Notes: a model not told the origin generated them from the sequence alone. Positions 6,701 to 59,460 are shown, counted from the stretch's first letter. The stretch is 64,000 bases of DNA from Scyliorhinus canicula (GCF_902713615.1 NC_052155.1:163531828-163595827); one strand, 5' to 3'. Translations and numbers: made by a program.

Positions 6701-7940
6701 TTGCATTTTGCTCTGTTTAGCGTTAAGCCAAATTTGTGTATCCTCTGGAAAACTTGCAATAGCCTTGCATTATGCTGTTCATGTGTAGATGACCAAACGA
6801 TGATCTCATCCACATAAACGCGTCCTCCATTGATGCCTTCAGTCATTTGTTCCATTGAACGTTTAAATATCTTCAATGCTGAGATTATACCCAAATGGCA
6901 TTCTGTGGAAACAGTATCGACCAAACAGTGTGTTGAATGTGCACAATTTCTTGCTTGTGTCATCTAGCTGTGTTTGCCAAAATCCTCTGGAAGCATCCAG
7001 TTTGGAGAAAAAAAATTCATTTGCCATTTTGCAGGTGATCTCTTCACGCTTGGGTATTGGATCATTTTCAGGCTTTACATTCTTGTTTTGATCTTTTGGA
7101 TCTATACAGATTCCCAATTCTCCAAATGGTTTCTTGATGCACATCATCGAACTGACCCAATCAGTCGGTGCTGTAATCCTGGAGATGATTCCAAGTTCTT
7201 GCTTTAATCTTTCATGTAGGAATTCTTCCAAGAGGGTGTACCACCGGTTTGGTATTTGGTTTCAATTGTATCTTGTACCTTCAAAGGCATGAGGAAATTG
7301 ATCAAGAATTCCCTGACTATCTTCCTGTACAGCTGGCAGAGGTGTGCAGTTGCTATAGATTCTTTGAACTAGGTGAAGATCCTGACAGGTTTATGCACCT
7401 AGTAGCGAAGATCGATTGGATTCAGCAATCTCGAACCGTAAGGTTATCACGGTGTCGTGATTAGTCACTATATGATAGCAAGAAAGCTTATTATAATCAC
7501 GCAATTGGCAATCTGTTTTCTGTATTTTAGGACCTTGACTAAGTTGCGACAGGTCATTAGTGTTGATCAAGTTCATGGAAGCTCCTGCGTCCAGCTTGAA
7601 GATGATTTCTTCATTTACTTGAAGCGGTGTATTCCATTCTGTTCATAGATTGTATTATTTGAGGATTAGAAGTATCATCTGCAGGAGCATTGAACTTTTC
7701 AATTATTCCTACAAAGAAGGAACCTTCTAAGCTATAAACATCAAGATCATTATAAATGTTATCGATTTTTAAAAGTTTCTGCAGTTGTGTCAACATTTCT
7801 TATATTCATGTGTGTCTTCAGTAGATTTACAGATTTAAATTGTGCTGCTTTAAGCAAAGTTCGGCATTGCACAGCAAAGTGATTTAGTTTGCAACAATTT
7901 GAGCAAGTTTTTCTTGTGCTCGGCAATTTTTTTGTGAGTG
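3796..7940 (-). mobile_element. Decayed AT-rich Ty3/Gypsy LTR retrotransposon (gag zinc knuckle, protease, RT, RNase H, integrase, PPT, partial 3' LTR)
   Basis: CSNCCKLNHFAVQC (about 7860-7910); FKLDAGAS protease motif; RT fragments (WVSSM..CIDPK, LDASRGFWQ, YVDEIIV); RNase H (STDASQSGIGAVL, ETDHRPL); integrase (TDNGPCF, SSPVYPQCNG). PPT AAAAAGAGGGA then TG at 3980. Many stops and frameshifts. Confidence 0.9.
5607..6244 (+). mobile_element. Solo LTR inserted in the RNase H region of the Gypsy element
   Basis: TGTCGTGGGAG...GGCCCATAACA with 4-bp TSD CCAT (5603-5606 / 6245-6248). Related to the LTRs at 39324 and 54084. Confidence 0.9.
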
Positions 7941-10502
7941 GGTGTATCTGGGGACCCACTGGGTGTAATAGGAGAAAAGCCCCAAGCAGTATTTGAGTGC
8001 CTTGAGGCTACGGGGAAGGGGAAGTTCCTTAAGGGGACGCATGCGGTCGGGGTCTGGGCCTAGGACCCCATTGTCCACGACGTAGCCGAGGATGGCTCGC
8101 CGGGTTGTGTGGAACACGCATTTCTCTTTGTTGTATGTGAAGTTGAGGGCCCGGGCAGTCTGGAGGAACTTCCTCAGGTTTGCGTCGTGGTCCTGCTGAT
8201 CATGGCCGCAGATGGTGACGTTGTCCAAGTACGGGAAGGTGGCCCGTAAGCCGTACTGGTCCACCATATGATCCATTGCCCTCTGGAAAACGGAGACTCC
8301 GTTTGTGACACCAAAAGGGACCCTGAGGAAGTGAAACAGCTGACCGGCTGCTTCGAAAGCCGTGTAGGGGCGGTCCTGTGGGCGGATAGGGAGTTGATAT
8401 TAGGCCGATTTAAGGTTGACCGTGGAGAATACCCGATACTGGGCGATTTGGGTCACCATTTCTGCTATGCGGGGAAGTGGATATGCATCGAGTTGCGTAA
8501 AGCGGTTTATGGTCTGGCTATAATCTACGACCATTCGCTGTTTTTCGCCGGAGCGGACTACCAATACTTGAGCCCTCCAAGGTACTGTTGCTGGCCTCTA
8601 TGACCCCCTCTTTTAGTAGCCGCTGAACCTCTGACTTGATGAAGGTCATGTCTTGGGTACTGTACCGGTGACTCCTGGTAGCGACGGGCTTACAGTCGGG
8701 AGTGAGGTTCGCGAAGAGGGAGGGTGGCGCAACTTTGAGTGTTGCCAGGCTGCAGACCGTGAGTGGGGGCAGGGGCCCGCCGAACTTCAGTGTCAGGCTC
8801 CGGTGGCTGCACTGAAAGTCCAGACCGAGCAGCAGGGGGGCGCAGAGTGAGGGAGGATGAAGAGTATAAAGCGGGTGTATTCAGCGCCTGAATTGTGAGG
8901 TCAGCGACACAATACCTCGTGATTTGTACCGAGTGGGACCCCGAAGCGAGGGCGATAGTTTGGGAGTCGGGGTGGGTTCACAGGGAGCAGCACCTTACCG
9001 TGTCTGGATGGATAAAGCTCTCCGTGCTCCCGGAGTCGAATAGGCTGGGAGTGTCGTGGCCGTTGACTTGAACCCGCATCATCGAGTTTCGCAGGTGCTT
9101 TGGACGCGATTGATTGAGTGTGATCGCTCCTAGTTGCGGGCCGTCAAAGTCCTCGGTTAAGTCGAACTCACAAAATGGGTGCCCGGAGTCACAGGATGGC
9201 CGCTGCCGCCGGTCGAATGTGTCAGGTTTCGAAGATGGCCGCCGCCAAGATGGCCGCTCCCATGACTCACACGAGGTCGATGACGCGTTGGAAGTGGCCG
9301 TGCTCGGCCGCAGCACGGCCGCGTTGCGGGGTCTGTGAGTCCGGGAGCTTGATTTCTGGGCCTGGTGAGGGTTTCGTTTGTAGCCTTTGGACCCAACCAG
9401 GCAGACTTTAGCGAAGTGCCCTTTCTTCCTGCAGCTGTTGCAGATCGCGGAGCGGGCCGGGCAACACTGACGTGGGTGCTGGCCTTGCCCACAGAAATAG
9501 CATGGGGAACCCCTGGAGTGAGCGGATCGCCGCGTGGCACAGGCCTGTAGCGTGGCCGAGTCTGGAGGGGATCGAGAGGGGTTCGCAAGGTCCGCGGAGT
9601 ACGTACGGAGGGAACGGTGGGCCGTTTTGAGAGAAGAGGCGAGAGTTACCGTGCCCTGGAGATCCTTTGCCCTGTCTTCTAGGAGCCGCTGCCGGATGTA
9701 CGAGGACCTGATTCCGGACACAAGGGCGTCGCGAATGTGTAAGTTACTGTGGTATTCTGCCGTCACTGCTTTGTGGTTGCAGTTCCTCGCGAGCGCAGTG
9801 AGTCTTTCCACGAACTCGTCCAGCGTTTCCCCGGAACGCTGGCTGCAGGTTGAGAGCAAATAGAACATAGAACAGTACAGCGCAGAACAGGCCCTTCGGC
9901 CCTCGATGTTGTGCCGAGCAATGATCACCCTACTCAAACCCATGCATCCACCCTATACCCGTAACCCAACAACCCTCCCTTGGCATGTACCTCGTTAGTA
10001 GGTTTTATGAAGCGTTTCTTCAGTATTTCGACCGCCGCATCATAGGTCGGAGCGTTCTCGATCACAGCGGAGAGTCGGTGGCCCACCCGGCCATGTAGTA
10101 AGTGCAGCTTGCGAGTGCTGTCGACATCAGTCGTTGAGGGGTCCAGATAGTCCTCGAAATACCGGAGCCAATATTAAAAAATTTCCGGGGCTTCCGCCGA
10201 CCTGGCGTCCAGGTTGAGTTTCTCCGGTTTTAGAGCGCTGTCCATCTTGATGTGTCTGTAGATTAAATTGAGGCACCCTCAATTATGACGCGAGAGCGAG
10301 GTCGGTAATCAAAAGGCTTTAATCTACAGAGAACTGAACAGCATCCGAGAGAAGTGTGCTCACCACATGGAGCCTTATCCTATATACCGTTTCCGGGGGG
10401 CGTAGCCAGAGGTGGAGTCCCCCAGGGTTCCAAGCCTCTTAAAGGGGCAAGGTATTAAAGGTCAGGTACCGTTTACGGCAGTTATTAATACCGTTCATCT
10501 CA
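7941..10502 (-). mobile_element. GC-rich Ty3/Gypsy element (5' LTR, gag, protease, RT), 3'-truncated, nested in the AT-rich Gypsy
   Basis: LTR 10502-10269. Gag ATG at 10245 (MDSALKPEKLNLD...), double zinc-knuckle region (CYFCG..HPRQCCPA..CNSCRKKGHFAKVC), protease LFDSGSTES, RT (DLKSAY, PYLDNVTICG, CLGLFSYY). A SINE tail is inserted at about 9859-9980. Confidence 0.9.
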
Positions 10503-27882: not shown

Positions 27883-30467
27883 CGTGATGGTATGAATAGG
27901 AGCACTGCCATTAGTGCAGAGCACTGGTTTCCCATTGGCTCTGGCTGGTCATGTGCCTCTCGGCTGATTGGCTGGGACTAGTCATGTGACTGCTCACCAA
28001 TTGGTCGAGAGGCAAGTAGACCCCGCCTCCGAGGCGGGGTATAGGTACCCAGAGTTCCCGGCGGTCGGCCTTTCACTGTAGTCGACCACCGGGCTAACAT
28101 CTAGCTGATTAAAGCCTAAGTTTGGACATCAACCTCCAAAAATTCCTCCGAACCGCAGAACTCCTTAATTTAACCTACATTAAGGATAAGTGCGTGTTTA
28201 GCACCGACCGTCTAGCCATCCTTGGCTACGTAGTGCGTAATGGAGTGATAGGCCCCGATCCCGAACGCATGCGCCCCCTAATGGAACTCCCTCTCCCCAA
28301 CACCCTCAAACGCTGCCTGGGCTTCTTCTCCTATTGCGCCCAGTGGGTCCCCACCTACGCCGACATAAGCCGCCCCCTCATCCAGTCCACCTCCTTTCCC
28401 CTGTCGATGGAGGCCCGACAGGCCTTTAGCCGCATCAAAGCGGATATCGCAAAGGCCATGATGCATGCTATCGACGAGTCCCTCCCATTCTAGGTCGAGA
28501 GTGACGCGTCCAAAGTTGCTCTAGCGGTCACCCTGAACCAAGCGGGCAGACCCATGGCCTTCTTCTCCCGGACCCTCCACGCTTCCGAACTCCGCCATTC
28601 CTTGGTGGAAAAGGAGGCACAGGCCATAGTTGAAGCTGTGCGATATTGGAGGCACTATCTGGCCGGCAGGAAGTTTACCCTCCTCACGGACCAACAGTCA
28701 GTAGCCTTCAAGTTCGATAATGCACAGAGGGACAAGATCAGGAATGACAAGATCTTGCGGTGGCGGATCGAGTTGTCCACGTACAACTACGATATCTTGT
28801 ATCGTCCTGGGAAGCTCACGAGCCTCCCGATGCCCTATCCCGCGGTACCTCGCCAGCGCGCAGATTGACCGCCTCCGCTCCCTCCACACGGACCTCTGCC
28901 ATCCAGGGGTAACCCGTTTTTACCACTTTATCAAGACCCGCAACCTGCCCTACTCCATTGAGGAAGTCAGGGCCGTCACCAGGGACTGCCACATCTGCGC
29001 AGAGTGCAAACCGCACTTTTACCGCCCCGAGCAAGTGCATCTGATCAAGGCGTCCCTCCCCTTCGAGCGTCAAGGGTTCAAAGGACTTCAAGGGTCCCCT
29101 CCCCTCCAACAACCACAACACATATTTCTTGAGTGTGATTGACGGGTACTCCCGCTTCCCTTTCGCCATCCCCTGCCCCGACATGACCACAACAACCGTC
29201 ATAAAGGCCCTCCTGACCATTTTCTCCCTGTTCGGTTACCCCGCGTACATCCACAGAGACCGGGGGTCCTCCTTTATGAGTGATGAACTGCGTCAATTCC
29301 TGCTCAGCAGGGGCATAGCCTCTAGCAGGACGACCAGTTATAACCCTCGGGGTAACGGGTAGGTCGAGCGGGAGAATGGCACCATCTGGAAGACCATCCT
29401 GCTGGCCCTACGGTCCAGAGATCTCCCTATCCCCCGTTGGCAAGAGGTCATCCCCGACGCCCTCCATTCAATCCGGTCTCTCCTCTGTACCGCCACTAAT
29501 CAAACACCTCATGAACGGCTTCTTGTTATCCCTAGGAAGTCGTCCTCAGGATCCCCTCTCCCGACCTGGCTGGCCACCACCGGGCCCATCTTGCTCCGGA
29601 AGCATGTGTGGATGCACAAGTCCGACCCGTTGGTTGAGCGAGTCCAGTTACTCCATGCCAACCCGCAGTATGCGTACATGGAGTATCCCAACAGTCGGCA
29701 GGATACGGTCTCGCTTCGGGACCTGGCACCCACCGGCGTGCGGCCTTCCGCCCCCACTACATCAACACCTCCCCCCAATCCCGATTCCCCCCAGCGCCCC
29801 CTGCACCCCCATGACCCAGCGCACAGACCCCCCCTTCCCCGATCACAACGTCTCCACCACCGGCCCGGGTTACGGAGACACATCTACGACCGACGCTCCC
29901 GGAGTCAAGGATGACCACCAGCCCGACGTCACCGGCTCCACTGCGACAGTCCACCAGAACACTATGGGCACCCGACAGGCTGATCGAGTCCATCTGATGC
30001 CATCATGGGACTTTATTGGACTCTATTGTAATATTTGTTTTTGCACCCAACTGTATTCGGTTTTGTTCACTTTTGCCACGAGCCAGTGGGCAGCCTCCAT
30101 CTTCTCGATTGTCTCTACTCATGCTACCATTTCCCCTTACAACACCCCCCCCCCCCCCCCCCGGCATCTTTCTACACAAGGGGTGAATGTGTTGTTATGA
30201 ATAGGAGCACTGCCATTGGTGCAGAGCACTGGTTTCCCATTGGCTCTGACTGGTCATGTGCCTCTCGGCTGATTGGCTGGGACTAGTCATGTGACTGCTC
30301 GCCAATTGGTCGAGAGGCAAGTAGACCCCGCCTCCGAGGCGGGGTATAAGTACCCAGAGTTCCCGGCGGTCGGCCTTTCACTGTCGTCGACCACCGGGCT
30401 AACATCTAGCTGATTGAAGCCTAAGTTTGGACCTTCATTGTGTCTCGCGTCCATTGATGGTGCATCA
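27883..30467 (+). mobile_element. Gypsy element related to 7941-10502, with an internal deletion (RT C-terminus, RNase H and integrase retained); two LTRs
   Basis: 5' LTR 27883-~28126 (truncated) and 3' LTR 30188-30467; about 9 differences over about 244 aligned bp. 5-bp TSD AATAG (27878-27882 / 30468-30472) inside a CR1. PPT before 30188. Integrase HHCC (HPGVTRFYHF..CHIC) and core (DRGSSFMS, YNPRGNG). Confidence 0.92.
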
Positions 30468-32150: not shown

Positions 32151-32760
32151 GATTGTAGCCATAGTGTACATGATGACATCTAATCAGAGAAAGACATTAC
32201 GAGTTTGATTTTAACTCCTGACAGGAGAATAGGTTTTGAATGAGGTAAAAATCTCGCCCTGTGATTCTCAGTCTGAAGCCAACGGTAGTTTCCTGTTAGG
32301 CAGCTGCAAATATAATTCATTGAGTTATTGTTATGAGATGGTTAGCGTGGTCAGTTGGGAAATTGCAGCGGGTAACTGCACTCGGCAGATTTCCCAGCAT
32401 TTTGTCAATTTCATTGATTCAGTTAACTCTGAAGATTGGGAGAATCAACGGGAAGAAATTTATAACCACTGTGAATCCACACCTCCCCCTCACACTGTAA
32501 CTCCAGAACCCAAGCTGAACCTGCCCAGATGGGGTAAAATTTTCAAGGCTCACAAAGCAGTACATCTCAAAATTCTTTTAACTATTTATTGTCTACCGAT
32601 AACATATAAATGTCAGGGTCATCAGATCGGAAGACCTATAACGCATAAGAGCAGAATTAGGTCATTTGGCCCATCGGGTCTGCTCCACCATTCAATCATG
32701 GCTGATATGTTTCTTGTCCCCATTCTTCTGCCTTCTCCTAATAACCCTTGATCCCCTTAT

Positions 32761-32978
32761 NNNNNNNNNNNNNNNNNNNNNNNNNNNNNNNNNNNNNNNN
32801 NNNNNNNNNNNNNNNNNNNNNNNNNNNNNNNNNNNNNNNNNNNNNNNNNNNNNNNNNNNNNNNNNNNNNNNNNNNNNNNNNNNNNNNNNNNNNNNNNNNN
32901 NNNNNNNNNNNNNNNNNNNNNNNNNNNNNNNNNNNNNNNNNNNNNNNNNNNNNNNNNNNNNNNNNNNNNNNNNNNNNN
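32761..32978. other. Assembly gap (N run)
   Basis: 218 N. Confidence 1.
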
Positions 32979-33216
32979 TGTCTATCTCTGTCAATCTCTA
33001 TCCCTCTCTCTATCTATGTCAGAGTCCTGGCAAATCGTATAACTAGTGCTGTCGATAGAGCTGTCACGCTTGGTGGGTTGGTGAATTTGATGGTGGCATG
33101 TCCTTATGAATGCCATCAATGTCCCTGTGCAACAGGAACCAAGAAGTGGTCAAATCACTTCGCTGTCTGATTTGGAGTCCTTTTTTTCCTCCGATATTTG
33201 TGATGGTGATGTTGGA

Positions 33217-33820
33217 TGGCATCTTGTAGCTGATAAGTTGGTGACGTTGAAGAGGTACCATCAACAGTATCATTCGAGGTCATGTATGTGCCATATGCTG
33301 AAGTTGGATAATACTGTGCATACTGGTTTTGGCCAAATGCTGTGTCGGAAGGGTAATCCTGATGAGAACTGTTGAAGCTTGTCGAATTGGAAACAGAATT
33401 GCTGCTCGCATAAATACCTGGTGATGGTGTGAAACTAGAACCTTGCATCTGACAGGAATATGCCGTCTGGCCAGGCTGGGGTGCAGCAAATCCTGGGCTG
33501 TAACCAAGGCATCCAGTCTGCAGTGCAGATTGTGCAGTAGTCCTCCGTCGGTCTTGATTCCATAAGTGGGCAATCCGTAGTGCTGGCCTGTTTGAGAATA
33601 TGCTGCATAGACTGCTGGCTGCTGCATTCCTGAATACTGGGTGTGTCCAGCAAAAGCTGTCATTGACTGCACTGCTGGTGTGGAAAGAATGTGTGGGTAT
33701 GGCTTGGAAGGATATAGCTGTGATGAATATTGGTGTATTCCTCTTGGACTGTGGCCACTACTTGTTATTACTGACCCAGTGTAATTGCCAAGTGATCCAT
33801 CTCCTGTTGTTGTGGCATCT
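33217..33820 (-). pseudogene. EYA4: Processed (intron-less) EYA4 cDNA fragment, N-terminal P/S/T-rich transactivation region, one frameshift near 33535
   Basis: [93 protein letters not shown] / [104 protein letters not shown] is colinear with vertebrate EYA4 over a region that spans several exons in the parent gene. No introns, no polyA tail. Confidence 0.9.
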
Positions 33821-34489
33821 GCTGTCACCCTGAGCATGCCGTCACTGAGTTTGCGGCACTCCCTGTCTGGAGTAAAGTCCGGCTTACGTGAATCAGAGTT
33901 GGCATTTGGTTGCTCTCCACCTGGAGTCTGGTCTGTTCTCCCGAAGTCAGCTGTGGTTTGTCGGTGCTCCCCGGAGTCAGCTGAGATTTCTGGAAGCTGC
34001 ACGACTGGAGTCGGAACATGCAGGAATGCATTGACTTGTGGAGAGCTTCGAGCGAATGAGGTTGGAAGTACCGTGGTGTCACCGGAGTCACCAGTGGTCT
34101 CACAGTGATCGTCGAATCCCTCTTTACACACTAGCTGACGTCTGTCATATTGCACATCTTGCATCCCATGGGAAGTGGGATGCTGTCGTCAGTCGTCTCG
34201 CACACAGTGGATAGAGCCTCAGTAGCTTCTTGTTGTTCACTTGGGCTGGGTAGACTGTCAGAGTCTTCTCCTTGTGGCTCAGACAATGTGGGTGGACCGT
34301 CATAGTCGCTCTGTTGTTCATTTAGGCTTGGACTGGCATAGTTGCTTTGTTCTTCACTGGAGCATGATAAACCATCATGGTCGTCCTGCTGTGCACAGGA
34401 GCGTGGTAGACTGTCATGGTCTTCTTGCTGTTTACTTGAGCATGACAGACTTGCATCGTCTGCTGCTAGTTGGTCAGAGGAGGTTGCTA

Positions 34490-34750
34490 GACCCTCATGG
34501 TCTTGTTCCTGCAAGGACTGCGCTTTGGAGTCTTGCATTGCTTCAATCATGGAGGCTGTCCACGAGCTCGCTGTGGAGGCTTGTGTCACTCGAGTCACTT
34601 CTTGTTCGTGCAAGGACTGCGCTCTGGAGTCTTGCGTTTCTGCAATCGTGGAGTCTGTCCACGAGCTCGCTGTGGAGGCTTGTGATACTGGAGTCACTTC
34701 TTCTTCATGCAAGGACTGCGGTGTGGAGTCTTGCGTGTCTTCTGTTGTGG
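34490..34750. repeat. ~105-bp tandem repeat, about 2.5 copies, inside the EYA4-carrying element
   Basis: TGCAAGGACTGCG...GGAGTCTTGC recurs at about 34510, 34610 and 34710. Confidence 0.8.
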
Positions 34751-35845
34751 AGTCGAGAACCCTTACCGGTGCATGGACCGCTCTCTGTGGGCTTCTACCG
34801 CTCTCTGTCTCTTGGTTTCAGGCCGCAGCATAATCCTGCACTCACGAGTCGTATATGCTGGGCTGCAGATCCTCAAATCCGAAGAATGAATCCGCGTCTG
34901 CATCGGATTCAGTACGGGGGTCGCCATTTCTAATGAAAAAACCTTCGTCCGAGTCGTAGTCTTCTAGGGCCATATCAGCACTGTTTGCGTCGGAGCTGGC
35001 ATTGGGCTCGCGATGTCCAGAGAAAAAATAAAGGTTGGTGTCGTAGTATTCAAGGTCTGAATCATCTGTTTGGACGTAGCTAACTGCTTGTTGCAGGGTT
35101 CTGCGGAGGTTACGTTCATTTCCTGGTTGAATTTCAGGCATTGTGCTGTCATTCCAGGAGAAGGAAGCTTGATTTATGGCTTTAAGAGATTTTTTTCGTG
35201 ATTTGGGACATTAAATGGGCCTGGTCCAGGGGCCTCTGACGTCACGAAGCGTGTGACATCAGTCGTAGGAAGCATTTGCGCATGCACCTATCGCTGTTCC
35301 TGTACGGGGGCGGGGGGGGGGGGGGGGGCGTTTTCGCAATTGCGCATGCGTGCCTTCTCGCACATGCGCAAACGGACCTTCCCATTCTGTGCGCTTCTCG
35401 CGCACCTGCGCATGTGCAGTACCTTTACAAAGATGGCCGCTGATCAAAATTGTTCTCTGCTCCGGGATCTCGGCCTTGTGGTGAGTACTGGCGTTTCTCT
35501 TACCGTTTTCTGCTGGTTGGAGTGTGTTTTCCTCACAGTATTTACCGAATTTGTCCAGGACTGCCTGGAAGTCGCCCCTGTTTTGCCCTTTGGTGAACTT
35601 GAATTTTTAAAAGATTTCTTCTGCACCGGCGATGGTGAGCAGAAGCTTTTCAGCATCGGCCACGTCTTGTAGGTCGGCTGCTGCCAGGAAGATTTCAAAC
35701 CTTCGCCGGAATGTATGCCAGTTTGCACTGAGATTGACGTGGCACTGGAGCCGCTGCGGAACCGGGATCTCAACCATCTTGCCTGGGTATTGTTGCTGGT
35801 TGTCACTGTGTGCTGAGTTATAGCTATATGAATTGAAACAAATCA

Positions 35846-35856
35846 CTCTGGTACCA
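35846..35856 (-). promoter_or_regulatory. Primer-binding site resembling the initiator tRNA-Met PBS
   Basis: TGGTACCAGAG directly after the LTR-terminal CA; 1 mismatch to TGGTAGCAGAG (complement of the vertebrate tRNAi-Met 3' end). Confidence 0.6.
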
Positions 35857-36292
35857 TGTCTTGTTATGCTCTAGGCGTAGCATAAGCGGCTTCCTTGTGG
35901 TGCACTTGATAAAGGAATGTTCAGACGTGGAGATAACTTCAACACGTTTATTAAACTATTTACACTTCTCCTACTCGGGTTCGCCACTACTGTTAATCCT
36001 TCTTTAGCTACTCAGACTGACAAACCAGTCTGCTACAATCCATGTGGTGGGAGTGATATTGAATCAACCCTGTGTCTCTACTCACTGACTGTCTCCACTG
36101 GAAAGAGGAAGATCATGCGTGTCCTTTATATGTGGTCGTGTCACCTCTGTGTGTATCGTGAATGCCCATTGGTCATGTCCTATCTAACTGATCTATTGGT
36201 TGAGTGTCTGTGTGTCAATTCTCTAGTGCCTAGCTTGTCTACTTGTATTTACATTAACCCCTTGCGTATTTACAGTGATATATATCACCACA

Positions 36293-39120
36293 GTAAGGAA
36301 TAAAGTTAAATCGATAGCAAGATGTGTTATAGGATCAGAAGGCATAGAATCTGTGTGGGTAGAGTTGAGGAATCGCAAAGGTGAAAAGACCCTGATGGGA
36401 GTTATGTACAGGCCCCCTAGCAGTAGTCAGGATGTGGGGCAGAAAATAAATCAGAGATGGAAAAGGCATGTCAGAAAGGCAATATTACAATACTCATGGG
36501 GGCCTTCAATATGTGGGTGCACTGGGAAAATCAGGTTGGCAGTGGATCCCAAGAAAATGAATTTGTGGAATGTCTAAGATGTTTTTTTGGTGCAGCTTGT
36601 GACAGGGCCTACTAGGGAACAGGCAATTCTGGATTTGGTGATGTGTAATGAGGCAGAATTGCTAAGAGAACTGAAGGTGAAGGAACCCTTAGGGGGCAGT
36701 GACCACAATATAATCGAATTTACCCTACAGTTTGGGAGAGAGAAGTTGGAATCAGATGTAACGGCATAACAATTGAATAAAGGTAACTCCAAAGACATGA
36801 GGGAGGAGCTGGCCAGAGTTGATTGGAAATGGAGCTTGGCAAAGAAGACAGTGGAACAGTAATGGCAGGAGTTTTTGGGGGTTATTCGGGAGGCATAACA
36901 GAAATTCATCCCAAGGAGGAGGAACTATACTAAAGGGAAGACTAGGCATCCATGGCTGACGAGGGAAGTCAAGGACAGCATAAAAGCAAAATAAAAAGCA
37001 TACAAGGTGGCGACGATTACTGGGAAGCAAGAGGATTGGAAAGATGTTAAAAGTGAGCAGAGGACAACTAAAAAAGCAATAAGGGAGGAGAGAGTCTAAG
37101 GTAGCTGGTAATATAAAAGAAGAGAGGAAGACTTTTTTTCAATATAGAAAAGATAAGAGAGAGGCAAGAATAGACATTGGACCACTGGAAAATGAGGCTG
37201 GATAAGTAGTAATAGGAAACAAAGAAATGGCAGAGGAACTGAATAGTTACTTTGCTTCAGTCGTCACGGTGGTAATGCTAGTGGGATACCAGGGGCTGGA
37301 TTCTCCGTTCCGCTGTGCCAGATTTCTGGTTCAGCACGCCAGCGAGATGCTCCGTTTCGCTGGCTGGTCAATGGAGTTTCCCATTGTGGGGCAGCCCCAC
37401 GCCATCTGGAAAATCCCGGGCTACCAGCAAAACAGAGCATCCTGACGGCGGAGAATCCAGCCCCAGAGCTCCAGGAGAATCAGGGGGCAGAGGTGAGTGT
37501 AGTGGCCAGCACAAAGGAGAAGGTTCTGGGGAAACTGAAGGGATTGTCGGTGGATAAATCACCCGGACTGGATGGACTACACCCCTGGATTCTAAAGGAG
37601 GTAGCTGAGGAGATTTTGGAGGCATTGGTGATGATCTTTCAGGAATCACTGGAGGAAGGGTCGCTCCCAGAAGACTGGAAAATTTCTAATGTAACACCGC
37701 TGTTTAAGAAGGGAGGGAGGCTGAAGATGGGAAATTATAGGCCGGCTAGCCTGTCTTCGGTTATTGGTAAGATTCTAGAGTCCATTATTAAAGATGAGAT
37801 TGCGGAGTACTTGGAAGTGCATGATAAAATAGGACTGAGTCAGCACAGCTCAGGGCGAGGTCATTTCTGACAAATCCGTTAGTGTTCTTTGAGAAGGTAA
37901 CAAGGAAGTTGGACAAAGGAGAACCAGTGGACGTGATTTATTTAGATTTCCAGAAGGCCTTTGACAAGGTGCTACACAGGAGACTGTTAAATAAGTTAAG
38001 AGCACATGGTGTTAAGAGTAAGATCCTGGCATGGATAGAGGATTGGTTGACTGGCAGAAGGCAGAGAGTGGGGATAAAGGGATCTTTTGCAGAATGACAG
38101 CCGGTGACTAATGGTGTGCCCTACGGGTTTGTGCTGGGAGCACCACTTTTCACAATATATATTAACGATCTGGAAGATGGAACTGAGGGCACTGTTGTTA
38201 AATTTGCAGATGAGAGAAAGATATGCAGAGGGACAGGTAGTATTGAGGAAGCAGGGGGGCTGCAGAAGGATGTGGACAGGCTAGTAGAGTGGGCAAAGAA
38301 GTGGCAGGTGGAATACAATGTGGTATACCAAAATGTGAGATTATGCACTTTAGAGGGACGAATAGAGGCATAGCCTATTTTCTGAATGGGGAAATGCTTA
38401 GGAAATCAGAAGCATAAAGGGACTTTGGAGCCCTGGTTCAAGATTTTCTTAAGGTTAATGTGCAGGTTCGGTCGGCAGTTAGGAAGGCAAATGCAATGTT
38501 TGCATTCATGTTGAGAGGGCTAGAATACAAGAGCAGGAATATACTTCTGGGGCTGTATAAGACTCTGGTCAGACCCATTTGGTGTATTGTGAGCAGTTTT
38601 GGGTCCTGCATCAAAGGAAGGATGTGCTGGCCTTGGAAAGGGTCCAGAGGAGGTTTAGAAGAATGATCGCTGGAATGAAGAGCTTGTCATATAAGGAACG
38701 GTTGAGGACTCTGGGTCTGTACTCGTAGTTTAGAAGGAAGAGGGAGGAATCTTATTGATACTTACAGGATACTTTAACTTCTGTATAGAGTGAATTGGAG
38801 AAGATGTTTCCACTAGTAGGAAAAACTAGAACCAGAGGGCATGATCGCAGACTAAAGGGACTATCCTTTAAAACAGAGATGAGGAGTAATTTCTTCAGCC
38901 AGTGGGTGGTGAATCTATGGAATTCTGTGCCTTAGAATGCTGTGGAGGCCAAATCACAGTGTCTTTAAGACAGAGATAGATAGTTCTCGATTAATAAGGA
39001 GATCTGGGGTTATGGGGAGAAGGCAGGAGAATGGGGATGAGAAAAATATCAGCCATGATTGAATGGCGGAGCAGACTCGATGTGCCAAATTGCCTTATCA
39101 TGCTCTTATGTCTTATGGTC
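36293..39120 (+). mobile_element. CR1-clade LINE ORF2 (endonuclease-RT) and 3' UTR, 5'-truncated by the LTR element
   Basis: ESVWVELRN..GVMYRPP, LGGSDHN (APE endonuclease); KSPGLDGLHP, NYRPASL, YLDFQKAFDKV, KFADE (RT). CR1-type 3' end; many stops. Confidence 0.92.
37293..37463. mobile_element. Short Harbinger-type MITE inside CR1 ORF2
   Basis: Perfect 14-bp TIR GGGCTGGATTCTCC / GGAGAATCCAGCCC with 3-bp TSD CAG. Confidence 0.92.
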
Positions 39121-39323
39121 CTATCTCTCTGTGCCTCGCTCCATCTCTCTATAGCTATCTCCCTCTATCTCTCTATCTATCTATCTATCTATCTATCTAT
39201 ATTTCTATCTACCTCTCTCTCTATATCTCTATCTCTCTATATATTTCTCTATCTATCTATTTCTTTATCTATATTTCTATCTACCTCTCTCTCTATCTCT
39301 CTATCTATTCTCTATCTTTCTAT
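39121..39323. repeat. (TATC)n/(TC)n microsatellite
   Basis: Direct observation; a similar tract lies at 32979-33017. Confidence 0.95.
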
Positions 39324-49498: not shown

Positions 49499-51344
49499 GT
49501 AAAATACATTACTGCTACCCGATAGAATTATCATAATTTGACAAAGATCTTTGAGTTTATGAAATTAGTAACATTTGATAAAAATGTTTCTCATATTTGA
49601 TTAACATAACTTTTAATTTAGATCTTTGCTAATTATTGTGTGGAAAATTTGAAACCAGCTAATTTCATCATATGTATTATTTAGAAGAGGGAAAAGCATG
49701 TTACTCCACCTGACACCACATCGAACCAGTTGCTGCAATTAATTCACTACCCTCACACAGCATCTGGAATTCTTATAAATCTTCTCAATAGCTGCAACCA
49801 TCCTTGCTGGGATGCATATGGAAAGACCTTTCCAAAGTAAGCTCTGATGTAACCTATAAATATCTTGGTGAAGTCAATAAAGTTGTTGGCAAGGGAATGC
49901 ATGGTGCTCTTAGAAGTTTTCAATAATGTGCCATTGTGTAAAATTCTGCTTGGCACAAGCGCGTTTTGGTCTGAAGCCTTAAAAACATTTGACGCCGAAA
50001 CGTCCCTCTGCCGAAAAATTCCTCCGTAGAATCGGCTACACCAAATGGGCCACGCCGAACTGGCCACGCCGAACTGGCCACGCCGGAACGTCCCATTCCC
50101 TTGTGAGACACACATGTGGTGGGAGGTGTGAGGGAGGGGTTAGGGTTGAGGAAGGGCTGGAGAGTTCACATGGCGATTTGGGGGGTGGATGCTCTTTTGC
50201 GCAGGGTGCGGAGGGGGGTCTGGGGGCTTTGATGTCTACTCACTCGTGCTACCCGGTGTAGCTCGTTGACCTTTTTCCAGCACTGAAGGCCAGTACTCCT
50301 GGTCACATTCCCCGAGCTGACAGCTGCCGCCACCTCATCCAGGCAGCACTGGCTGACTTGTGGCTGACTCTACAGGGCCCTCGGGGGAACAGGACATCCC
50401 TCCTGGCCTCCACCCCATCTGGGGCCTCGCCAGGTCAGCATCTCCGAATCTTGGGGCCGGCCTCCTGGGCGCCTTGGGCGCGATTCTCTGCTCCAGCGGC
50501 AGAGTGTCGGCTCCGGCGTCAAAACGGGAGTGTTTCACTCAGTGGTCAGCGCTCGTTCCGGGACCCCATTCTGCGCTGTACAAGAGGCTAGCAGAGGTGC
50601 GGCGGGGGGCGTGGCAGGAGGCATGGAGACGCGGTGTCATGCAATCGACACAATGCCTCGTCGCACATAAGGTGACGCAAACGTACAGGCTGCCGATGGA
50701 GCAACATGGCGCCACACCGAGCAGCGCCCCAGTTCATCGACCACGACCTGGAGACGCTCCTGGACGCCCTCGAGGAGAGGAGGAGGTGTCTGTACCCTGG
50801 ACCCAGCCAGAGGGTCCCACCCAACGTGGCCCAGCGTCTGTGGAGGGAGGTGGGCACGGCCGTCAGTGCCATTGCGTTGACACCCAGGACTGGCGAGCAG
50901 TGTCGCAAGAAGCTCAGCGACCTACTGAGGGCAGCCGGGGTGAGTACCCAGCAATGTGCCCATGGCTCCAACCCACCTACACCACACATCTGTGACACCC
51001 ACCCCCTCCCTAGGGGACGGTACAACCACAGCCGTGACCCGCATGGCTGCAGCCACCTATGCAAGCCGCGTTGGCCGTGTGTCCTGTGCACCCATGCCAA
51101 CATAGATCCAGCCGCATGCATCGGACCACCTAACAATGCTGTCATTCCCCCCCCCCCCCTCCCCCAGGAGAAGAGGGCCCATAACCAACGGGAGCGAGCC
51201 CGAACCGGAGGGGGTGAACCTGATTTGCGACCCCTCACCGTGCACGAGCTGAAGGCACTGGGCATAGCTAGTTCACCCAAGGACCGGGAGATTGCCCATG
51301 CCGAGATGGGGTTGCGCCACCAAGTGAGATCCCCCCCCCGGCCT

Positions 51345-52060
51345 GGCCCCTTTCCCCTCAGCAGTCTCTCCTCAGCACACTATCCCCAGCACTCTCCCCT
51401 CAGGACTCTCCCCTCAGCACTCTGCCCTCAGCTCTTTCCCCTCAACCCTTTCCCCTCAGCCCTTTCCCCTCAGCACTCTCCCCTCAGCACTCTCCCCTCA
51501 TTCCTTTCCCCTCAGCACTCTCCCCTCATCCCTCTCCCCTCAGCACTCTCCCCTCAGCACTCTGCCCTCAGCTCTTTCCCCTCAACCCTTTCCCCTCAGC
51601 CCTTTCCCCTCAGCACTCTCCCCTCAGCACTCTCCCCTCATTCCTTTCCCCTCAGCACTCTCCCCTCAGCACTCTCCCCTCAGCACTCTCCCCTCAGCTC
51701 TTTCCCCTCAACCCTTTCCCCTCAGCCCTTTCCCCTCAGCACTCTCCCCTCAACACTCTCCCCTCAGCACTCTCCCCTCATTCCTTTCCCCTCAGCACTC
51801 TCCCCTCAGCCCTCTCCCCTCAGCACTCTCCCCTCAGCACTCTGCCCTCAGCTCTTTCCCCTCAACCCTTTCCCCTCAGCCCTTTCCCCTCAGCACTCTC
51901 CCCTCAGCACTCTCCCCTCATTCCTTTCCCCTCAGCCCTTTCCCCTCAGCACTCTCCCCTCAGCACTCTCCCCTCAGCACTCTCCCCTCTTCCTTTCCCC
52001 TCAGCATTCTCCCCTCAGCTCTTTTCCCTCAACCCTTTCCCCTCAGCACTCCCCCTCACC
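51345..52060. repeat. 14-bp pyrimidine-rich minisatellite (CCCCTCAGCACTCT)n, apparently within a Harbinger Myb intron
   Basis: About 50 tandem units, directly visible. Confidence 0.95.
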
Positions 52061-52319
52061 CTTTACCGCGACCCACAGCCCCCTCCACCTGCCTAACCAT
52101 GATGGTGTATTGTGTGTCGCAGGGCCATGCGGTGACCAACGTGGAGCACCTGGCAGATACCGCCCGCATCCAGCGCCTGGACGGCAAGCCGACGCAAATC
52201 AACCAGGCGCATCAGGCTTACACCGCCCCCGGCCAGCGCCTGAACGGCCAGCCCACAGGGACTCTAGCAGCGATGGGGTGGGCAGCTCCAACAACAGCCC
52301 TCCAGCCCAGTTCAATGAC

Positions 52320-52590
52320 AACACGATGACCCAGGACACCAGCACACAGGGGACAGTCAAGCACGACACGACAACACAGGACACAAGCACACAGGGGACA
52401 GACAGACATGACACGACGACACAGGACACAAATACACAGGGACAGACAGGCACGACATGACAACACAGGACACAAGCACACAGGGAACAGACAGGCACGA
52501 CACGACGATACAGGACACTAGCACACAGGGCACAGACAGGCACGACACGACGACACAGGACATGAGCACAGAGGGCACAGACAGACATGA
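52320..52590. repeat. 39-bp tandem repeat (13-aa unit TTTQDTSTQGTDRHD-like)
   Basis: About 6-7 units visible. Confidence 0.85.
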
Positions 52591-55454: not shown

Positions 55455-58400
55455 AAAAGTCTATCTATTGGATTGGCTTAGTGAACTTAAAGACAGTGAG
55501 GGATGAGCATATCGTGGTTGCTTTTCAGGTGTGGTATTCCAGTTTAAGTAGGGAGTGTGTTGTGGACAATGGCTCTTCCAGAGGCTGTGAAGTTTTTGGG
55601 GGTGGAGACGGTCATACGTAATACCTTACGGACAGAGACCAAAAGCAGACTGTTAGATTTGGCAAAAACATTGCAGTTAACTTTACCTGACAAAATGCGA
55701 AAAAGATGAGGTAATTATGGCGGTGGCTAAGCATTTAAGGTTGCAGAAGGTACAGTTTGAATCATTGGAAATGGCAAAAATTCAGTTACAAATGAAACAA
55801 ATGGAACATGAGAAAGAATTAAAGCAGCTTGAAAACGAAACTGAGAGGGAGGAAAAATATAGAGAGATATAGAGGAAAAAGAAGAGCGATAGAGAGGACA
55901 AGGAAAAGGAGAGAGAAGAAAGGAGAAAAGAAAGAATAGCCCTAGTAGAACAAAAATAAAGAGAAAGGGAGATACAGGTCAGGGAAAAAGATAAATAATA
56001 AGGGGAGTGTACCTCAGACTAAAAAAGAAATCCAGGATAGTGGAAAAGACATGAAAAGTTTCTAATGTTTTCACTGTAATAAACTAGGCCATGTAAAGTC
56101 ACAGTGTTGGTGGTTGAAGAAATGCACTGGGAAGTCTGATGTGGTAAAACAGGATAAGACAGTGGGGTTTGTTAAGTGGGAAAGGAAAGCCCAAGGAAAA
56201 TGAAGGAGGTGCAAAAGATTGTACAACTTGAACAAGAGGTGATTGATAAGAAGGTGCCAGATGTCTTTAAAGAATTTACTTGTGTGGGTAAAGTTTACTC
56301 ATGATATTAGGAGGAGCAGGTAAAGAAGTCACAATTTTAAGAGATAAGGGAGCTGGTCAATCTTTAATGGTAAGAGATGAGGAGTAATGTAGTTTGGGAA
56401 GAATATTGCCAGAAAAGGTGGTAATATGTGGAATTCAGGGTGAGAGAAGTAGTGTTCCATTACATAAGGTAAGGTTGGAAAGTCCAGTGAAGAGTGGTGA
56501 AGTGGTAGTAGGAGTAATAGAGAAACGATCTTGTCCAGGAATACAGTTTATCTTGTGTAATGATATAACTGGATCGCAGGTGGGAGTGATGCCTACTGTG
56601 GTTGATAAGCCAGTGGAAAATCAGACAACTGAAGCGTTGAAGGACGAATTTTCTATGATTTTTACAGATTGTGCAGTAACAAGGTCGCAAAGTCACTTGT
56701 TAAGACAAGAGAAGAAATCAAAGAGTGAAAATGAAGTTGAAGTGCCATTATCAGAAATTATTTTTGATCAGATCGTTGAAGAAGAACAAGAACAGGTGGA
56801 GGATGAGGTGGATATTTTTAGTTCAGAAAAATTGCCAGTTACAACATAAATATGTAGTAATAAAATGGATATATCAGAAAACATATACGGAAGAGAAATC
56901 TTGAGTGTATACCGGAGTGTTATTACTGTAAAAGTGATGTCTTGAGAAAATGGAGACCTTTACATATGCAGGCGGATGAAAAGTGGGCAGAAGTTCATCA
57001 AGTAGTATTGCCGGAAGGGTATAGAAAGGAGGAGTTGCGAGTTGCACATGAGGTACCAGTGGGAGGTCATTTGGAAACAAGGAAAACTCAAGCTAAGATC
57101 CAGAAACATTTTTATTGGCCTGGAATACATAAAGATGCAGTTAAATTTTGTCAATCATGTCACATATGTCAAGTGATAGGGAAACCTCAAGTAGTGATAA
57201 AACCAGCACCCTTAATACCTATTCCAGCATTTGAGGAACCTTTTTAAAGTGTCCTAATTGAATGTGTAGGACCGCTTCCTAAAACAAAAAGTGGGAATCA
57301 ATATCTTTTGACGATAATGGATGTGTCGACTAGGTTTCCAGAGGCCATTCCAGTACATAATGTTACAGCTAAAAAGATTGTGGAGGAGTTACTTATATTC
57401 TTTACTAGATATGGACTACCCTCAGAAATACAATCAGATCAAGAATCAAATTTTACCTCAAGGTTATTCAAAGAAGTTATGGATAGTTTAGGAAGAAAAC
57501 AATTTAAATCAACTGCGTACCATCCAGAATCGCAGGGAGCGTTAGAAAGAGATTCCCTGTGCTATCAGTGGTAGGTGAACCTTTAAAAGCAAGGTTTTCT
57601 AGACCTTATCAGATTGAAAGGTAATTAAGTGAGGTGAATTATGTGGTAAAAACACCAGATAGAAGGAAGACTCATCGAGTGTGTCATGAGGATATGCTTA
57701 AAAGGTACTTTGAAAGGGAAGGAGAGAAAATGGAGGAGACTCTAATGATTCTAACTCAAAGTGACGAACCAAATCCAGATGACTGTGAATTTGACATACC
57801 TTAAATTAAATTGGAAAGTGAGGATATTCTTAAAAATTGGGATAAATAGTTGAGTTACCTTCCAGAGGAAAAACGGACTGACCTGAAATGAAGTACTAAA
57901 ATGGTTATACATGATATAGATGTGGGAAATGCTGTTCCAATCAAACAACATCCATACAGACTTAGCTCTTTAAAATTGGCACAAGTTAACAAAGAGATTG
58001 AGAGTCTGCTTAAAAATGGCATAATTGAAGTGGGTTGCTGCCAATGGTGCTCACCCATAGTGATGGTACCTAAACCGGACGGTACCCAATGGTTTTGTGT
58101 GGACTATAGAAAGGTTAATGCAGTTACAAGAACGGACCCGTATTCTATTTCACATTTGGAGGATTGCATTGAGAAAGTGGGACAGTCAGCTTTTATTACC
58201 AAACTGGATTTAATTAAATGTTACTGGCAGGTACCTTTATCCGAAAGGGCGAAGGAGATTTCAGTTTTTGTGTCTCCAGATGGTACACACCAATTCAAAG
58301 TCATGCCATTTAGCATGAAAAATGCCCACATTTCAACGGTTAACTAACAAAGTCGTTTCAAGATTACCCAATTGTGCGGTATACATCGACGATCTGGTAA

Positions 58401-59460
58401 TCTTCAGCCAGAGAGGGAAAGAACATGTAAAACATCTGATTGAGTTATTCGATCGACTTCAGGAGGCGGGTTTGGTGGTAAATCTAACCAAAAATGAATT
58501 TGGAAAAGCCCAAGTCACCTTCCTTGGCCATACAAATGGGCAGGGTCAAATGGTCACATGGGATGTGAAGACAACAGTTATTGAGGAGTTTCCAATACCC
58601 TCGACACGAAGGGAAATAATGCGATTTCTTGGCATGAGTGGATTTGATCGAACTTTTGTGCAAAATGTTAGGAGCGTGGTTGCTCCACTGATGGACGTGC
58701 TGAAGAAACATTGAAAATTACAGTGGACAGCGGAGTTTCAACAGGCATTTGACTGCCTGAAAGCTGTGATAACCAATGCTCCTGTGTTGGAGAATTACAA
58801 GGGACCCTGTGATCAGATTGAACTAAAATATCTGACTTTAAAGAGAAATGCCGAGGCGTAGAGAAATGGACGGATCGTGCAGAGACCTTCTTGTTCAAAG
58901 AGACTATCAATCAAGAGGGTTTCCAGTTGGAGGAGGAACAAAAAGGGACTATATAATTGTACCTGTTTGCATGTGCTTTTTGAAACGAAAAACTATATTT
59001 ACTGTGTGTGTTTCTTAAAGGATAGTGAAAAGGTGATAAATGAAACCATCTTGAAGTTGATGGGTTTTTTTTCTTGGGTGGAGTTGCCATGTGAGAGTAC
59101 CTTTAAAAAATGGGTGTTTATTACTGCAGTGTTGTCAGAGAGTGGGTGGAGCTGGGCTGACTCTGCTTTACTTTCGTTTTTGAGCAGGCTGCTATAGAGT
59201 GAAGTTTTAATTTTGTTTTCAGAGAGCAGAGCTGCAGTGAAAGCCAGCAGATGTGCATGGATCTCTCTACAAGCTAAAGAGTGTTCATTTGGGTGATTTC
59301 AAATGAGTAACTGCTCTCATTAGAGAATTTAAACCTGATCTCTATTAAAAGGGTCTTTTGTCTTCTGGATGTTGTTTGGGAATTTATTAAGGATTACTTA
59401 GTGTTGTATTTTTTTGGGGTTGTATTTGAATTGATGGTTGCTCAGATGTTCACTGTATGT

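Follow-up and report, generated by a model that had tools for sequence, protein, structure and literature searches.

How did part of a host mRNA come to lie inside an LTR element in a catshark genome, and does it do anything there? The question is raised by a locus in the window, the whole stretch of 64,000 nucleotides of Scyliorhinus canicula DNA that was analysed. EYA4 is a regulator of sensory placodes, and Eya4 has a role in lateral-line and electrosensory development. The window itself is rich in repeats, among them remnants of LINEs, LTR elements and DNA transposons, and no intact host gene was recognised among its 145 stop-to-stop frames of at least 100 aa, 13 of which were scanned against Pfam.

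Anatomy of the element and its EYA4 cargo

The element lies on the minus strand and has the order LTR, primer site, gag stub, linker and EYA4, all in one orientation (Table 1). The first-pass annotation had described it as an LTR element carrying spliced EYA4 mRNA, and this is confirmed by the LTR, the primer site, the HMMER matches of the gag stub and an intron-free match to EYA4 at 94% identity. Neither a second copy of the LTR nor a sibling element was found within the window by self-BLAST. The primer-site-like sequence presumably matches the 3′ end of a Leu tRNA. No zinc knuckle was seen in the gag stub. Tandem repeats occupy two parts of the linker (a 99-bp unit repeated 2.6 times at 34501-34754 and a 39-bp unit repeated 2.5 times at 34355-34451), and its reading frame, open in the gene model P0051, is broken in the window's copy near 34844-34820 and near 34165. 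The window's copy, with gag interrupted by a stop and the frame broken in no fewer than three places, is dead as a coding unit.

Table 1. Features of the EYA4-carrying element and its neighbours (positions counted from the first nucleotide of the window).
Feature	Position	Strand	Remarks
Assembly gap, 218 N	32761..32978		covers the element's 3′ end, and the 3′ LTR if present
TCTA/GATA-type microsatellite at contig end	32979..33020		
3′ flank common to the family, 185 bp	33021..33205	-	matches P0001 down to 33070
Last five parent codons, one-base shift	33206..33220	-	3′ junction mid-exon
Captured EYA4, second part (P0055 residues 204-308)	33221..33535	-	after the copy-specific break
Captured EYA4, first part (P0055 residues 109-201)	33538..33816	-	in frame with the linker
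294-aa ORF	33280..34164	-	116 aa linker + 93 aa in-frame EYA4 + 85 aa out-of-frame EYA4
Low-complexity D/E/S/T/Q-rich linker, common to the family	33817..35210	-	~1.4 kb
gag stub from ATG 35777	35261..35777	-	about the first 87 codons Ty3/Gypsy Gag-like; in-frame stop at 35609
Primer-binding-site-like sequence, TGG start	35840..35856	-	directly after the LTR
5′ LTR, 436 bp, TG...CA ends	35857..36292	-	TATA-like TATAAA at 36130; AATAAA at 35952
LINE, presumed CR1 type	36293..39131	+	weak RVT_1 match

No pol sequence was found in 35777-33021, the part of the element in view. The earlier description of the element as pol-less therefore stands for these 3.3 kb, while the element's 3′ end lies in the 218-N gap, and neither a 3′ LTR nor a target-site duplication is visible. 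Because this gap is shorter than one LTR, either the gap is under-sized or the element is truncated. Five frames of the element, among the 13 window frames scanned, had no Pfam match, and Rfam gave none in 32600-36500, the 3′ flank included.

The affinity of the gag stub was examined with a full HMMER scan of the first 100 codons from ATG 35777, with X at the stop at 35609. There were 121 matches at E<=0.001, nearly all at protein N-termini, and 13 of them, picked by rank or length, were scanned for domains. Three are full polyproteins with reverse transcriptase (RT), RNase H and integrase in Ty3/Gypsy order, six contain protease, RT or zinc-knuckle domains, two gave no match and two belong to unrelated families. 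The window's Gag is 27-47% identical to its relatives over ~80 aa. A 171-aa version of the stub had no Pfam family and no useful PDB match, and a word-index search of longer proteins with it returned none of 987 candidates. Judged by sequence, from the TG...CA LTR, the primer site and the kinship of Gag to PR-RT-RH-IN polyproteins, the element is classified as Ty3/Gypsy-type, and we take the start of its Gag to resemble the Mag clade. The absence of pol over the 3.3 kb in view indicates that it would be non-autonomous; no autonomous partner was found by the word-index protein search or by self-BLAST of the LTR in the window.

The plus-strand LINE, which we take to be of the CR1 type, starts inside its own endonuclease region exactly at the LTR edge. 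Beyond the gap lies the 3′ end of a minus-strand LINE instead of the 5′ part of the CR1-type LINE. This LINE was probably the insertion target of the element.

Using tblastn, S. torazame EYA4 (P0055) matches the window with 94% identity (E 1e-103). The match is in the element's own orientation and lacks the C-terminal Eya domain, both as originally proposed. The cargo of ~610 nt (33816-33206) is intron-free and represents the middle third of the EYA4 mRNA (residues 109-313 of 610), running without interruption across four or more inferred exon joins; about half of the EYA4 coding region is missing on its 3′ side. The earlier estimate of ~600 bp is correct as to presence and falls short in extent by five codons, which continue out of frame to ~33206. 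Exon joins were inferred at the protein level, by comparing 152 named EYA4 isoforms and gene models for insertions and deletions. These are concentrated at residues 123/124, 145, 193 and 234, with a weak cluster near 262, corresponding to joins near 33771, 33705, 33561 and 33442, and weakly 33358, with no introns there. Both ends of the cargo lie inside exons. No poly(A) tail is present, in agreement with the earlier reading (downstream, A runs reach at most 7 nt, the longest lying 19 nt beyond the 3′ junction), and self-BLAST at E<=1, which very short duplications would escape, found no repeat between the cargo junctions. The cargo does not have the form of a LINE-made processed pseudogene: its 3′ end is cut within a coding exon and carries no tail.

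The lack of a short segment known from human EYA4 had been read as the capture of a particular splice form. We found the direct join in 30 of 33 cartilaginous-fish EYA4 records and the 7-residue segment in none (two are unscorable and one has another insert), in a sample that is biased to the query's form and includes X1 or X2 isoforms of five cartilaginous-fish genera; the segment occurs in 8 of 119 bony-vertebrate EYA4 records. The direct join is therefore the normal shark EYA4 sequence, with no special splice form, and that claim is withdrawn.

The 294-aa ORF, previously called element-derived, exists and contains 93 aa of in-frame EYA4, and only its first 116 aa derive from the element. 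Its start corresponds to an internal Met, residue 388 of the longer frame of P0051, just past the frame change near 34165. The frame break near 33536, at which four bases of the parent sequence are missing, is specific to the window's copy, a point that the first-pass annotation had proposed to test: ten of the 12 other listed models cross it in frame and two leave the frame earlier. A functional 294-aa protein was rejected, the ORF being a fragment set by two copy-specific frame breaks. The function implied for the fused ORF is likewise not supported, in view of the internal Met start, the private frame break and the neutral-looking substitutions described below.

Residues 52-122 of human EYA3 align with the first part of the cargo (E 2e-13), as does the EYA3 peptide from a PP2A:B55 structure. 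A core B55 motif within this EYA3 region is described as conserved across the EYA family in two reports (PMC12350174; PMC11328874). The counterpart of the EYA3 PP2A:B55-recruiting motif lies at ~33705-33682 and is intact in the window's copy. The second part contains a conserved tyrosine-rich stretch with six Tyr, one of which is changed in the window's copy. An EYA tyrosine motif is tied to innate immune signalling in PMC3419738, and the six-tyrosine stretch may be that motif. An Asn encoded in the last five parent codons is common, among 10 other shark records, to S. torazame only; its value as a date marker is weak, since 11 records from rays and skates have it too.

EYA4-carrying copies in two Scyliorhinus species

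A near-length protein search yielded 50 matches among 842 candidates, including 11 Scyliorhinus EYA4-like or uncharacterised models and one parent model. In a longer protein search (1653 matches among 3843 candidates) the best 120 contained one more element-type model. There are thus at least 12 EYA4-like or uncharacterised models with the segment, seven in S. canicula on five chromosomes and five in S. torazame on five chromosomes, the chromosomes being told apart by their sequence lengths and none of the 12 listed being on the 376-Mb sequence of the S. torazame parent. All 12 element-type models listed carry EYA4. Among the matches listed, the element-type relatives all come from Scyliorhinus, a catshark genus. 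Six other shark genera in which the parent gene was found have no element-bearing model listed, and unannotated copies are possible there. The proposal that capture by an LTR element was followed by amplification of a family is borne out by these models.

The window's upstream linker is matched by 10 of the 12 listed models and its downstream flank by three (E<0.01), as compared with none of six parent controls. P0007 has the same shifted tail at a score below the E<0.01 threshold; P0009 has neither flank and is placed by two substitutions in common with P0002. Eight of the 12 keep the same linker frame as far as the 5′ junction, apart from small deletions, and in four the 3′ tail shows the same one-base shift, the other eight ending or splicing away earlier. 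None reaches the gag stub; P0051 has linker and EYA4 in one frame. The shared shift and shared junctions indicate one capture followed by copying. Neither of the two findings that the first-pass annotation named as speaking against its reading was made: the segment is multi-copy rather than a single copy with LINE hallmarks, and there is no chimeric contig end, both junctions recurring in models on chromosome-scale sequences of 113-328 Mb. With copies on 10 chromosomes in two species and recurring junctions, an assembly chimera is excluded.

The family is known from protein models, and annotated copies are selected for open frames. By stop-path counting, only ~0.4 of copies of such age would keep the frame stop-free, before indels are considered, so the true copy number should well exceed 12.

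Substitution pattern of the EYA4 segment

We compared residues 109-308 in 11 named copies and the window, hand-trimmed to their in-frame parts; P0010 was left out as out of frame. Divergence from the parent amounts to 5-12% of sites in the copies and 6% in the window; for 11 orthologues from sharks, rays and chimaeras it is 1-9%. The window is 94% identical to the parent and 84-91% identical to any copy. The tree of copies is star-like and supports among copies are low, mostly under 80. Substitutions in the copies are mainly private (99 private versus 20 shared), and eight of the 20 shared ones occur in both species, some perhaps in parallel.

A site was counted as conserved if 95% or more of 88 bony-vertebrate records retain it, which gives 161 of the 200. 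The copies have 89 of 119 substitutions at these sites (95.8 expected at random) and the orthologues 18 of 39 (31.4 expected), a significant difference between copies and orthologues (Fisher P=0.0015). Shared copy substitutions fall at conserved sites in 15 of 20 cases. At sites invariant in 13 orthologues the count is 87 of 120 (91.8 expected, P=0.33; site 259 included). As the copy substitutions are spread almost randomly over conserved sites, the EYA4 segment behaves as a neutral passenger. The copies lack the features of a functional EYA paralogue: PF00702 is listed for none of the 12 models, and the substitutions are near random.

At the DNA level, the parent was read in two frames over 87 codons, the second of them supplied by a faulty S. 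torazame gene model (P0004). The window differs from the parent by five non-synonymous changes, one of them on the parent lineage, and four synonymous changes, over ~202 and ~62 sites. The resulting ratio of ~0.4, against a neutral 0.5, is compatible with neutrality and comes from too few changes to exclude constraint. The eight-residue counterpart of the B55 motif is intact in five of 12 copies (11 named and the window), with ~6.6 expected from the mean change of 7.2%, and the six tyrosines are intact in five of 11 copies as compared with 11 of 11 orthologues. Selective retention of either motif was rejected on these counts. The pattern of change suggests that the EYA4 segment is probably non-functional.

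Origin of the chimera and related cases

We consider it most likely that an LTR element captured EYA4 mRNA by template switching, spread with the aid of a helper and that the cargo then decayed. A Ty3/Gypsy-type particle in the germ line of an ancestral catshark would have co-packaged spliced EYA4 mRNA. Reverse transcriptase would then have switched template mid-exon onto the EYA4 mRNA and back ~610 nt later. The resulting chimera, retaining LTR and primer site, would have been copied in trans by an autonomous partner, since no pol is seen in it. It has spread over many chromosomes, before or across the split between S. canicula and S. torazame, with the EYA4 segment as a passenger and each copy decaying neutrally, at the protein level, after insertion; the window's copy would have inserted into the presumed CR1-type LINE.

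Oncogene-transducing defective retroviruses carry spliced host mRNA fused behind gag and depend on helpers, and their oncogenes are selected for function. The EYA4 element is alike in having spliced host mRNA behind gag sequence; it differs in that no env or retroviral features were seen, the Gag relatives are of Ty3/Gypsy type and the cargo decays.

Alternatively, a processed EYA4 pseudogene made by LINE machinery could have inserted into a non-autonomous LTR element and been multiplied with it after a deletion had removed the pseudogene's 3′ part and tail. LINEs account for 34% of the S. canicula genome and are the dominant source of recent activity in it (PMC11979771), and insertion of sequence into elements is common in the window. 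Neither junction, however, has a poly(A) tract or a duplication, the mid-exon ends and the loss of about half of the coding region on the 3′ side are the pattern given for LTR-mediated copies in PMC5131818, and an additional deletion is needed before amplification; we regard this route as unlikely. Multiplication of one chimeric locus by segmental duplication or a DNA transposon, or an assembly artefact beside the gap, might be suspected from the position of the segment 230 bp from the gap and from the fact that the other copies are known from protein models only. It is hardly credible in view of the dispersal over 10 chromosomes in two species with both junctions recurring; dispersed copies with shared junctions are treated as secondary retroposition in PMC5131818.

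The segment may instead have been selected in a master copy, as a fusion of Gag, linker and EYA4 recruiting PP2A:B55 or serving as an immune or transcriptional decoy of EYA4, or as a source of RNA that regulates the parent. In favour, the 5′ junction keeps the frame, for which the odds by chance are 1 in 3, the segment spans the counterpart of the EYA3 B55 motif (PMC12350174) together with the presumed tyrosine motif (PMC3419738), and no amino-acid change is common to all copies save one from the parent lineage. LTR-borne partial cDNAs silence their parent in the diamondback moth, according to PMC9674220. Against such selection, the numbers of copies retaining the B55-motif counterpart and the six tyrosines are those given above, and changes to the former include Leu-to-Phe in three copies, in both species, and a 5-residue deletion in two. 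Conserved sites are hit equally often by shared and by private substitutions, and no listed model joins gag to EYA4, all of which makes this explanation very unlikely. A broader idea is that the capture was kept for its benefit. A Gag-side fusion made by the master, with PP2A:B55 and tyrosine motifs and without the SIX-binding phosphatase domain, would hijack PP2A or damp nucleic-acid sensing as viruses do, or the family would wire EYA4 into the anti-transposon small-RNA system, so that silencing of the element tunes the parent gene. We hold this to be improbable; neutral decay of inserted copies may be compatible with selection on master copies or on RNA.

Capture by an LTR element, the reading we prefer, is an already described kind of event, LTR-mediated retroposition, as set out in Tan et al. 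2016 (PMC5131818). Such retrocopies are reported there as partial, tail-less and lying in LTR elements of fly, mosquito, zebrafish, chicken and mammals, with secondary copying. The EYA4 family resembles them in being a partial, intron-free copy of host mRNA, in its lack of poly(A) and in its dispersed shared junctions. The cases given there (e.g., Drosophila CG17604_r, zebrafish, chicken, mouse) have few insertion sites, whereas the EYA4 family has at least 12 dispersed annotated copies, 13 if the window's copy is not among them, is older (~3.5% per-site decay) and has a developmental co-activator as its parent. In the type of Tan et al. 2016 the copy lies between element sequences with a 5′ and a 3′ LTR; the EYA4 cargo has LTR-element sequence on its 5′ side and a family-shared flank on its 3′ side, where the gap covers any 3′ LTR.

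Maize Bs1, as summarised in PMC5131818, is similarly a non-autonomous LTR element with gag-side sequence plus host exons and with switch points shared across related species. It differs in carrying pieces of three genes in 1-5 copies and in being reported to encode a protein, as compared with the EYA4 family, in which a single donor is identified, copies are more numerous and constraint is not apparent. Pxyfem, the W-linked PxyMasc retrocopies of the diamondback moth, is also a multi-copy partial cDNA of a developmental regulator with LTR-retrotransposon remnants including gag; PMC9674220 describes these copies as W-clustered and their piRNAs as silencing the parent, while the EYA4 copies are dispersed. 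Multi-copy truncated retrocopies on fish B chromosomes are reported in PMC12758807.

We found no description of the Scyliorhinus EYA4-carrying family in the literature; Repbase and Dfam, which were outside the scope of this search, may catalogue it. In PMC11979771, which describes the S. canicula genome, one "eya-4-like gene" is given without comment in the chromosome 2 gamma-crystallin cluster of S. canicula, and it may well belong to this family. The family provides a vertebrate case in which a retrotransposon transduces part of a developmental regulator and spreads as a family across a speciation, and with two chromosome-level genomes the junctions, copy number, age and selection are directly testable. 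A cargo with a PP2A:B55 docking motif could feed small RNAs against EYA4, although present evidence favours no function. The family also accounts for a set of spurious "EYA4-like" annotations in one of the main model organisms among cartilaginous fishes, and probes, primers, read counts or CRISPR guides directed at EYA4 codons 109-313 in catsharks may match its copies.

Variation among EYA4-element copies

The subfamily markers of four annotated protein models of EYA4-element copies in Scyliorhinus torazame (P0001, P0006, P0011 and P0051) form a mosaic. Three of the copies have in common one substitution and, at the 5' junction, a 3-residue loss; a 5-residue loss is common to one of these three and to the fourth copy, which carries neither of the other marks. 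This distribution of markers hints at recombination among the copies. The frame of the acidic low-complexity linker, which lies upstream of the EYA4 piece, is uninterrupted for ∼480 codons in P0051, and a Pfam search with the linker yielded 0 matches.

Possible joins to other domains, and the contig end

The S. canicula model P0003 extends beyond its EYA4 part, and residues 317–369 weakly match an integrase core (Pfam search, E = 0.084). This stretch may come from a neighbouring sequence joined by splicing, or it may be what is left of the element's own pol. Among the proteins that match the gag stub, the second in rank is P0172 (1328 aa), whose matching residues 154–240 precede a guanylate-binding-protein domain; this arrangement could represent a gene-model fusion or another join of gag to a host sequence.

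Upstream of the LTR of the EYA4-carrying element lies a LINE whose TCTA tail (39132–39323) resembles the contig-end microsatellite (32979–33020), a low-complexity match only. Based on this resemblance, the element may be interrupted at 33020 by another LINE, which would also account for the adjoining gap.

Other features of the window

Features identified in the window, by position
Feature	Position	Strand
RT and integrase remnants	4432–7261	−
gag-protease-RT remnant of another element	7884–9952	−
Ty3/Gypsy-type element with two LTRs	27884–30460	+
Acidic low-complexity linker	33817–35210	−
Three mutually related LTR-like starts	39324, 54084, 59085	+
594-aa stop-to-stop frame, Myb/SANT-like domain PF13873 above cut-off (Pfam scan)	50676–52460	+
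pol remnants	56388–58714	

The 5' LTR of the Ty3/Gypsy-type element is cut at 28127 and followed directly by remnants of RT, RNase H, and integrase; its two LTRs are 97% identical over their common 244 nt. The gag-protease-RT remnant sits immediately upstream of the RT and integrase remnants, and the two elements are probably nested. The pol remnants lie between the second and third LTR-like starts. The Myb/SANT-like frame, which we take to be of Harbinger-type origin, is broken up by a tandem array of 50 14-bp units (51353–52058) and is followed by a 45-bp array.
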